This document shows, one piece after another, positions 58,624 to 59,608 of a stretch of DNA of 64,000 nt. Under the pieces are notes generated by a model that was given only the letters and a program-made list of their open reading frames with translations, made no database searches and had not been told where the DNA came from. Source of the stretch: Escherichia coli (GTDB lineage Bacteria > Pseudomonadota > Gammaproteobacteria > Enterobacterales > Enterobacteriaceae); NCBI RefSeq assembly GCF_050920415.1, contig NZ_CP169309.1; one strand, 5' to 3'. Position 1 is the stretch's first letter. Each line of letters begins with the position of its first letter. Made by a program: the position numbers and the translations under genes.

Positions 58624-58931
58624 GCAGCTTCTCCATAAATATGTCTGCGTTTGAATATTGCGAAGGCATATTCAGCCTTAACTCTTTCGGTTATTGCATC
58701 CCAGAACCATTCAGCGGCTTTTTCCTGATAGTTACAGTCATCATCTTCCAGCCAGTCGATAGCGTCCTTAGTATGTTCATCTGGTTTATATGAGCGAAGC
58801 ATTTCGCTTATTGGGTCGCAACGTTTGCAGAGGCGATCAACTTCACTGTTGATTCGTTCGTAATCTTCATCAGTAAAACTTGCGATTATTTGCGATATTT
58901 CACGCTTATCATTCAGAGTCAGAATCATCAT
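58620..58931 (-). CDS. Hypothetical prophage protein (103 aa)
   Basis: ORF translationally coupled to recT. Confidence 0.5.
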   Translation of the reverse strand: MMILTLNDKREISQIIASFTDEDYERINSEVDRLCKRCDPISEMLRSYKPDEHTKDAIDWLEDDDCNYQEKAAEWFWDAITERVKAEYAFAIFKRRHIYGEAA

Positions 58932-59012
58932 CTTTCTCCTGTTCTTTGTGCTGATTGAGCATTTTGTTCATCTGACGAATGAATTCTTCGTCTGACCAGT
59001 TATCTGTAAAAC

Positions 59013-59165
59013 TCATTTCCTGCGATACCACGGAAGATTGATGGCTGATTTCATCGCTTTATTTGCTTCAAGCCACATTTTTGAATCACCAATAAATCTG
59101 GCTATTACTGCTTTGTTCTGTGCAGCACGAAGCATCTGGTGATTAATGGCTATTTCATTGCGCAT
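59013..59165 (-). CDS. Small ORF (50 aa) in the kil position; possibly a Kil-like host cell division inhibitor
   Basis: ATG with GGAGG RBS; product MRNEIAINHQMLRAAQNKAVIARFIGDSKMWLEANKAMKSAINLPWYRRK; synteny with the lambda pL operon; weak recalled similarity to lambda Kil. Confidence 0.35.
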   Translation of the reverse strand: MRNEIAINHQMLRAAQNKAVIARFIGDSKMWLEANKAMKSAINLPWYRRK

Positions 59166-59284
59166 AACGCCTCCATTTGTTTCTTTGCTGCTCTGATTAA
59201 TTGTTTAACTCGGCGTGATAATTCAGATTCGTGCGGGTAGAAAGCGGACATGACGCCGCTACCCGCGAGCTGAAAGTGCATCAT
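59150..59284 (-). CDS. Small ORF (44 aa) in the cIII position
   Basis: ATGATG start 7 nt after a perfect AAGGAG RBS; product MMHFQLAGSGVMSAFYPHESELSRRVKQLIRAAKKQMEALCAMK with a predicted amphipathic helix. Confidence 0.35.
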   Translation of the reverse strand: MMHFQLAGSGVMSAFYPHESELSRRVKQLIRAAKKQMEALCAMK

Positions 59285-59374
59285 GGGTAACTCCTTATAT
59301 TTGATTGCATAACGAAAACGCCTCGAGTGAAGCGTTATTGGTATGCGGTAAAGCCGCCAACAGGCGGCTATTTG

Positions 59375-59608
59375 CTATTGATTCTTTTCAAGAACATCAA
59401 TGATGTCGTCCGGGTTGTCTCCGTTGTCTTCACAAAATGCTTCGAATTCAGCCCATTTCGCGCTGATAAAATCAATTACTCTCATTAATTCGTATTCCAT
59501 ATTTTTCTCCAGACCAAAAGAATGCCGCCCATATAGAGCGGCAAGACTATCAAGGAATGATTTCCAATAATCAGAACAAGTCGGCTCCTGTTTAGTTACG
59601 AGCGACAT
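59375..59608 (-). CDS. Hypothetical prophage early protein (77 aa), acidic
   Basis: ORF; first gene leftward of the N region. Confidence 0.5.
   Translation of the reverse strand: MSLVTKQEPTCSDYWKSFLDSLAALYGRHSFGLEKNMEYELMRVIDFISAKWAEFEAFCEDNGDNPDDIIDVLEKNQ

Follow-up and report, generated by a model that had tools for sequence, protein, structure and literature searches.

Small genes in an annotation gap: a cIII-kil segment, very probably of the HK022/HK97 type, in the early-left operon of a lambdoid prophage of Escherichia

Results and discussion

The window analyzed here, a stretch of 64,000 nucleotides, includes a lambdoid prophage in an Escherichia chromosome, and we are highly confident that the standard cIII-kil segment of an early-left (pL) operon of the HK022/HK97 type lies between its annotated 103-aa and 77-aa ORFs. 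Three overlapping short ORFs of 44, 50 and 35 aa are located there on the minus strand (58909-59284). The first-pass annotation had reported a gap of 440 nt packed with minus-strand ORFs of 44, 50 and possibly 35 aa and had placed them, by synteny with lambda, in the cIII and kil slots. The gap exists, with a size of 443 nt (58932-59374) and not 440 nt, and all three ORFs are present, at 59150..59284 (44 aa), 59013..59165 (50 aa) and 58909..59016 (35 aa). Assignment to the two slots is confirmed for the 44-aa and the 50-aa ORF by Pfam families PF08134 and PF06301 and by near-identity and identity, respectively, with the HK97 proteins. The 35-aa ORF, which had been counted among the candidates for the same slots, encodes neither of the two proteins. 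Its position corresponds to the slot of P22 arf, and we term it orfX in the following.

A gap of this kind in a prophage early operon is to be read as a set of missed small genes, because automatic gene calling and supplied tracks omit genes of less than 50 codons. The genes had been described as unannotated, which is true of the supplied track and not of other records: kil and cIII are annotated as gp43 and gp44 in the HK97 GenBank record and are also annotated in H-19B, and Kapi1 likewise annotates genes of the segment. In RefSeq, many E. coli genomes annotate kil, and one of the records opened also features a "protease FtsH-inhibitory lysogeny factor CIII". The segment thus holds nothing new; cIII and kil are already known and it is their short length that left the annotation gap. 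Database entries for cIII and kil of the HK022/HK97 type go back to 1989-2000, and the mechanisms of the lambda counterparts are understood. It is for annotation that the assignment is of practical use; its biological weight is small.

Genetic setting and gene arrangement

The DNA around the prophage is approximately 96% identical to Escherichia chromosomes near csc/dsdA. The genes and sites for pL, boxB, N, Cro and CII are all found in the window. The upstream part of the region comprises a lambda-type cI (62019-62732), a lambda-type pL (TTGACA-17-GATACT, minus strand, 60991-60963) accompanied by lambda-type operators, a gene for a 127-aa N protein of the P22/HK97 type (60331-60714, minus strand, PF25694) and a P22-like boxB, GCGCTGACAAAGCGC. 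The sieB gene (59770-60309) resides on the strand opposite to the early-left operon, and CII (63172-63468) ends with a lambda-like C-terminal tail, KKRPAATERSDQIQMEF. On the other side of the segment, orf103 (58620..58931, minus strand, 103 aa, phrog_3486) precedes a gene for a 303-aa RecT recombinase (57712..58623, minus strand, PF03837 with E = 6e-32, phrog_148), with which the recombination module begins and after which a Gp157-family gene follows. The resulting order N-(sieB)-small ORF-terminators-cIII-kil-small ORF-recombinase is that of lambda, P22 and HK97.

Stops and starts overlap along the chain as had been noted before: cIII and kil share 16 nt, the kil stop and the orfX start share ATGA, orfX overlaps the 103-aa ORF by 23 nt, and ATGA is again common to the stop of the 103-aa ORF and the recT start. 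The strong ribosome binding sites that had been claimed are present in front of two of the three ORFs. When anti-SD pairing energies were ranked against 2373 ATGs in the window, cIII (AAGGAG at 59296-59291, 6 nt 5' of the ATG, -8.8 kcal/mol) and kil (GGAGG at 59174-59170, 4 nt 5' of the ATG, -9.3 kcal/mol) both came out in the top 1%, with only 0.9% and 0.7% of the ATGs, respectively, being as good. The orfX ATG, with -2.8 kcal/mol at the 37th percentile, has no usable SD.

A search of Rfam over 56000-64000 at E <= 1 returned no match, no NCBIfam model matched any of the small ORFs, and PADLOC did not match orfX, the 41-aa ORF described below, orf103 or sieB. Promoter-like sites on the plus strand were looked for in the region and none was found; plus-strand ORFs of 32-56 aa run antisense to conserved genes.

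Conservation was first followed in 80 viral contigs picked for an identical Kil protein. The count of 20 synonymous to 0 non-synonymous variants obtained from this sample is biased by the selection on Kil protein identity and was replaced. As the first sample had been selected in this way, we used a second one that was anchored on a 20-nt hairpin upstream of cIII and yielded 114 usable contigs. These fall into three cIII classes, the lambda class with 54 aa, the HK022 class with 44 aa and a third one with 56 aa, and the variant counts given below for the complete cIII, kil and orfX frames are taken from 31 contigs with HK022-type cIII.

The 44-aa ORF as cIII of the HK022 class

The product of the 44-aa ORF (59150..59284, minus strand) matches Pfam PF08134 (cIII) over the full profile (positions 1-37) with 102.4 bits against a cutoff of 25 (E = 1.1e-29) and also belongs to phrog_550. 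It shares 43 of 44 residues with HK97 CIII, the sole difference being the conservative change L37M. The exact sequence with M37 is present on 98 public contigs and named "hypothetical" in all members read. The gene lies behind a conserved hairpin, directly upstream of and overlapping kil, and a CII partner is encoded in the prophage. Pfam family, position and ribosome binding site are the same as for CIII from HK022, HK97 and H-19B, from which the protein differs by L37M. Among the 31 contigs, cIII features 2 synonymous and 5 non-synonymous variants, which is too few for a selection test.

Two classes of cIII genes have been distinguished, one named after lambda and one after HK022, with HK022, HK97 and H-19B making up the second (Kobiler et al., 2007, PMC1838920). 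BLASTP did not align the 44-aa product with lambda CIII at E <= 100, and at E <= 1 it matched no lambda CIII family in Pfam. Since similarity to lambda CIII is not detectable, we place the protein in the HK022 class and not in the lambda class. The two proteins have in common the slot right behind a shared hairpin and before kil, an N-terminal M..[AQ][IL]AG and a central amphipathic helix; they differ in that the 54-aa lambda CIII belongs to a separate Pfam family, the 44-aa protein has a shorter C-terminus and a significant pairwise alignment is not obtained. The helix in question spans residues 18-41, equivalent to the essential segment of lambda CIII at residues 14-37, and is amphipathic with a hydrophobic moment (muH) of 0.53, a value reached by 0.4% of shuffles, compared with 0.67 for lambda in the same sequence-only calculation. 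Folding of the mRNA around the start of cIII is unremarkable (z = -1.5) and gives no sign of lambda-like structural control of translation.

Lambda CIII is a substrate of FtsH. It is also a competitive inhibitor of this protease and in this way stabilizes CII (PMC1838920). By analogy, the 44-aa CIII would likewise act as an FtsH inhibitor and CII stabilizer. A function shared with lambda CIII is proposed on the basis of the published class assignment, the position of the gene and the amphipathicity of the protein.

The 50-aa ORF as kil

For the 50-aa ORF (59013..59165, minus strand), the match to PF06301 (Lambda_Kil) covers all 31 profile positions with 72.6 bits against a cutoff of 27.6 (E = 1.7e-20), and phrog_2055 is matched with E = 1e-35. 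Alignment with the Kil and cIII families had been proposed as a check in the first-pass annotation, and both families are matched above their curated cutoffs. The protein is 100% identical to HK97 Kil (gp43, AAF31123) and an exact-sequence look-up returned the Swiss-Prot name of HK022 Kil, VKIL_BPHK0. The same sequence occurs on at least 1000 contigs under the name "host cell division inhibitory peptide Kil". The gene belongs to the pL operon, where it is situated right after cIII and ahead of the recombination genes. In HK022 and HK97, an identical protein is encoded in this very position and with the overlap with cIII, and the DNA differs at a few synonymous sites. Among the 31 contigs, variants in kil are 10 synonymous and 8 non-synonymous, with 20% synonymous being expected (P = 9e-4); an excess of synonymous variants is a feature of the kil frame only and not of the cIII and orfX frames.

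A faint resemblance of the stretch IARFIGDSKM to lambda Kil had been noticed earlier and proved to be well founded: the stretch corresponds to residues 21-30, the lambda counterpart reads IATFIGDEKM, and the two proteins share 57% identity (17/30 residues) over the core. An AlphaFold2 model of the 50-aa protein (pLDDT 84, reaching 91-96 over residues 11-40) predicts a helix from residue 2 to 25, a turn at G26-D27 and a second helix from residue 28 to 42. Likeness to the 47-aa lambda Kil therefore extends to the PF06301 family, the FIGDxKM turn region, the predicted helix-turn-helix hairpin and the operon slot. Differences reside at the ends, with seven extra residues at the N-terminus and a C-terminus reading ...LPWYRRK as compared to ...LRSSKSIH in lambda. 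The C-terminal RSK/RSSK motif was looked for in the 50-aa protein and is absent, its end being PWYRRK with a basic cluster, RRK, that is kept. [quoted passage not shown] For lambda Kil, a helix-turn-helix core of the same architecture has been modelled, and deletions showed that this core is essential (Naha et al., PMC11762379).

The small ORF orfX in the arf slot

The third ORF of the chain, orfX (58909..59016, minus strand), encodes a small acidic protein of 35 aa, MSFTDNWSDEEFIRQMNKMLNQHKEQEKDDDSDSE, that matches phrog_17766 with E = 8e-16. A mechanically called 40-aa form with a GTG start at 59031 was rejected; it lacks an SD (+1.2 kcal/mol) and does not represent the conserved start, and the ATG at 59016 is preferred. 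Since this ATG has no usable SD of its own, orfX would probably be translated through coupling to kil. Its product has the same sequence as the annotated Kapi1_014 and as P0043, which is present on at least 1000 public contigs and named "hypothetical" among the matches listed. One relative carries the source name "accessory recombination function protein".

In P22, the gene order is c3-kil-arf-erf, and orfX occupies the slot of arf: its start overlaps the end of the preceding gene and it resides directly upstream of the recombinase module. P22 arf has been named an accessory recombination function (Poteete et al., 1991, as cited in PMC12315714). With the 47-aa P22 Arf (PF17585), orfX shares the character of a small acidic ORF between kil and a recombinase gene, the overlap of its start with the kil end and a seven-residue N-terminal [FW]SDEEFI motif (WSDEEFI in orfX, FSDEEFI in Arf), which is the sole similarity in sequence. 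The two differ in that orfX is found upstream of RecT and further recombinases in addition to Erf, and in that no likeness extends beyond 16 columns. None of 13 orfX variants matched Pfam PF17585 at E <= 10, phrog_2445 was reached with E = 0.086 and hhalign against Arf gave a non-significant probability of 14% over 16 columns. As all three tests fail, we do not file orfX under the Arf family; judged by its sequence it is an arf-slot ORF, not a family member.

Comparison of 84 loci revealed a composite organization of orfX. Essentially no variation is seen in the first 16 codons, and codons 1-21 occur in a few closely related forms, after which five different C-terminal forms lead to proteins of 35, 52, 56, 60 and 83 aa. 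The class of the C-terminus co-varies with the downstream recombinase module. The 35-aa form adjoins orf103 and RecT in 19 of 19 such loci, and orf103 is always found together with this form and RecT, whereas forms of 52, 56 and 83 aa, which resemble HK97 gp42.1, pair with Erf or a 235-aa recombinase, after which SSB often follows. HK97 gp42.1 itself has the first 16 residues in common with orfX, but the HK97-type forms of 52-83 aa continue with an unrelated C-terminus. In the hairpin-anchored set, orfX follows the 50-aa Kil or directly the cIII of the 56-aa class and is never found beside lambda Red.

What orfX does is a matter of weak inference; we regard it as perhaps an accessory factor or adaptor of the Arf kind that would serve the recombination module next to it. 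A more specific version of this idea is a modular adaptor in which a constant N-terminal helix, MSFTDNWSDEEFIRQM, serves a shared function or partner and an exchangeable tail is matched to the recombinase module. We consider this version distinctly unlikely; if true, it would explain why the mosaic junction lies inside the orfX gene and not between genes. It is also conceivable, and somewhat unlikely in our judgment, that orfX is not a functional protein gene at all and that the 50-60 nt conserved after kil are a recombination linker, a sequence at a module junction or a leader for translational coupling that hands ribosomes on to the recombination genes, in which case the frame would be incidental. 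Such a role would agree with the restriction of conservation to the first 16-21 codons, the remainder being swapped along with the downstream module, with the missing SD, with the overlap between the HKEQEK codons of orfX and the SD of the next gene and with PGAP leaving orfX unannotated in RefSeq genomes. Variation of orfX in the 31 contigs is shallow, and its 5 synonymous and 13 non-synonymous variants (5/18, P = 0.12) do not amount to a significant synonymous excess. In a count for the first 16 codons, 5 of 12 variants are synonymous versus 14% expected (P = 0.018), which speaks for a protein. Of the 84 loci, nearly all have kept an open frame, in one of the five C-terminal forms, and a few truncated copies are the exceptions. 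In Salmonella phages, the protein is conserved despite changes in the DNA, and the ATGA overlap is retained behind three unrelated upstream genes, i.e. kil, the cIII of the 56-aa class and a third gene. Finally, a genetically defined small gene with a similar motif, P22 arf, sits in the very same slot.

Putative terminators

Two hairpin regions lie on the minus strand upstream of cIII. The first is a terminator-like hairpin, TGCCGCTCTATATGGGCGGCA, followed by a T-run (59513..59543), which was found by a terminator scan inside the annotated 77-aa ORF and has a minimum free energy hairpin of 8 pairs. It is also present in P22; lambda and HK97 have a different G+C hairpin with a T-run there. The second region (59307..59369) is located just upstream of cIII and consists of tandem hairpins, AGCCGCC-TGTT-GGCGGCT and then AACGCTTC-ACTC-GAGGCGTT with TTCGTT, which fold with -30.4 kcal/mol (z = -4.8) and are 92% identical to the lambda DNA just upstream of cIII. 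In the HK97 record, a 'putative terminator' is noted within a few bases 5' of the second hairpin, which HK97 shares, and it is the 20-mer of this second hairpin that precedes the three cIII allele classes in the 114 viral contigs. We regard the tandem hairpins as putative leftward terminators that would be read through by N-modified polymerase. The lambda tL2 terminator cluster lies in this part of the operon, and the tandem hairpins may be its equivalent; the lambda records used here do not annotate tL2.

Proposed expression and function

Upon infection or induction, transcription would start from the lambda-type pL. N of the P22/HK97 type would modify the polymerase at boxB, and the modified polymerase would then be able to read through the hairpins at 59543-59513 and 59369-59307 and transcribe the overlapping chain of cIII, kil, orfX, orf103 and recT. 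Translation of cIII and kil is expected to proceed from their own strong SDs, and ribosomes ending at the kil stop would probably restart at the ATGA of orfX. If the 44-aa protein behaves like lambda CIII, the peptide with its amphipathic helix would compete with CII for the FtsH protease, CII would rise and lysogeny would be favored. Lambda Kil breaks up FtsZ rings, an effect that depends on ZipA (PMC3961180, PMC11762379). Ring disruption with transient filamentation has been shown for HK629 Kil' as well as for lambda Kil, and by analogy the two-helix hairpin of the 50-aa protein would do the same and be an inhibitor of FtsZ-ring assembly. For orfX, help to the recombination module in the manner of Arf is our best guess, and a weakly founded one.

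An FtsZ-directed role presupposes that the 50-aa allele has not diverged to a target other than FtsZ/ZipA. The moderate identity to lambda Kil over 30 residues, the deviating N-terminal extension and C-terminus without RSK/RSSK and the precedent of P22 proteins called 'Kil' that are unrelated in sequence would all fit such a divergence. Nevertheless, we deem it improbable, as the helix-GD-helix core that is essential in lambda Kil is conserved, with F24, I25, G26, D27, K29, M30, E33 and A34 among the invariant columns of the alignment, is predicted with pLDDT > 90, and the basic C-terminal RRK cluster has been kept. Inhibition of FtsZ-ring assembly hence stays our preferred reading for Kil. 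The cassette as a whole could also be an inert remnant of a defective prophage, its genes being intact by descent and never expressed in the host. [quoted passage not shown] We therefore judge an inert cassette to be highly improbable and favor an early-left operon that is expressed as outlined above.

Leader block and start of the annotated 77-aa ORF

Upstream of the first hairpin, the pL transcript contains a conserved non-coding leader block (59551..59657, minus strand), in which the start of the annotated 77-aa ORF is located. The identity of the block is 98% with the ral-ea10 intergenic DNA of lambda and with HK97, compared with 86% for P22 DNA upstream of gene 17, and the block is kept in related loci whatever comes after. 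Most of the first 36 codons of the 77-aa ORF fall on this block, and indels relative to P22 break the frame of the ORF within it. A further candidate in this area, a 35-aa ORF with a TTG start (59368..59475), was rejected; it matches no family in the libraries searched and is located within another gene in a different frame.

The 77-aa ORF (59375..59608 in the supplied track) is probably over-extended from a wrong start, and the real gene is likely to be one of 41 aa (MEYELMRVIDF...) at 59375..59500 on the minus strand, in the slot of ea10 and P22 gene 17. We judge the annotated start to be probably wrong because the ORF crosses the leader and the terminator-like hairpin, because the start codon of P22 gene 17 aligns with that of Met37 at 59500 and because phrog_15754, a profile of 43 positions, matches residues 36-75 only. 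The ATG at 59500 is preceded by an SD, GGAG, with a pairing energy of -6.4 kcal/mol, and the 41-aa product is weakly similar to P22 gp17 (pairwise E = 0.007).

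Leader and cIII variants of the early-left operon

The region directly upstream of cIII (59307-59369, minus strand) contains several hairpins, one of which, the 20-mer AACGCTTCACTCGAGGCGTT, is kept exactly ahead of three cIII allele classes of 54, 44 and 56 aa in the window and loci L091-L210. The three classes look unrelated to one another, and in the 56-aa class kil is missing and orfX (35 aa in the window) resides directly after cIII. A second conserved element of approximately 100 nt is located further upstream on the same strand (59551-59657) and shares 98% DNA identity with HK97 and with the ral-ea10 intergenic region of lambda, and 86% with P22. 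All related loci compared contain this block irrespective of the genes located downstream. It had no match in Rfam and could be a regulatory site, a processing site or a recombination linker.

The 77-aa ORF of the supplied track (59375-59608, minus strand) is probably over-extended. The greater part of codons 1-36 falls within leader DNA whose counterpart in lambda and HK97 is intergenic, and the reading frame crosses a terminator-like hairpin (59543-59513). Met37 (ATG at 59500) aligns with the start of P22 gene 17. The real gene is likely to encode 41 aa, and this product is weakly similar to P22 gp17 (E = 0.007).

Immediately ahead of cIII, a mini-ORF of nine codons, ATGCAATCAAATATAAGGAGTTACCCATGA (59285-59311, minus strand), lacks a Shine-Dalgarno sequence, and its TGA shares bases with the start codon of cIII. 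Kapi1-like phages have an indel that brings the ATG of the mini-ORF in frame with cIII, which is annotated there as 61 aa. The mini-ORF itself is probably not significant. Rare natural fusion variants of the small ORFs are represented by the proteins P0093 and P0104, both of 69 aa. In one of them orfX is fused to a C-terminal portion of the 103-aa protein, and in the other Kil is fused to a C-terminal portion of orfX; both probably originated by deletions between short repeats.

Immunity region and rexA/rexB slot

The immunity region (60331-61010, minus strand, and 62019-63468) is a hybrid that combines lambda-type cI, Cro, operators and pL with N (127 aa) and boxB (GCGCTGACAAAGCGC, 60893-60879) of the P22/HK97 type. 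CII (63172-63468) combines a divergent body with a lambda-like C-terminal tail, KKRPAATERSDQIQMEF. The interval between cI and pL, filled by rexA/rexB in lambda, is occupied here by two overlapping minus-strand ORFs of 145 and 123 aa (61216-62011). Neither product had an above-threshold match to any Pfam or PADLOC family, all matches of the 123-aa product to coiled-coil families being sub-threshold. The two ORFs may constitute an uncharacterised prophage exclusion pair and are followed by a terminator at 61210-61189.
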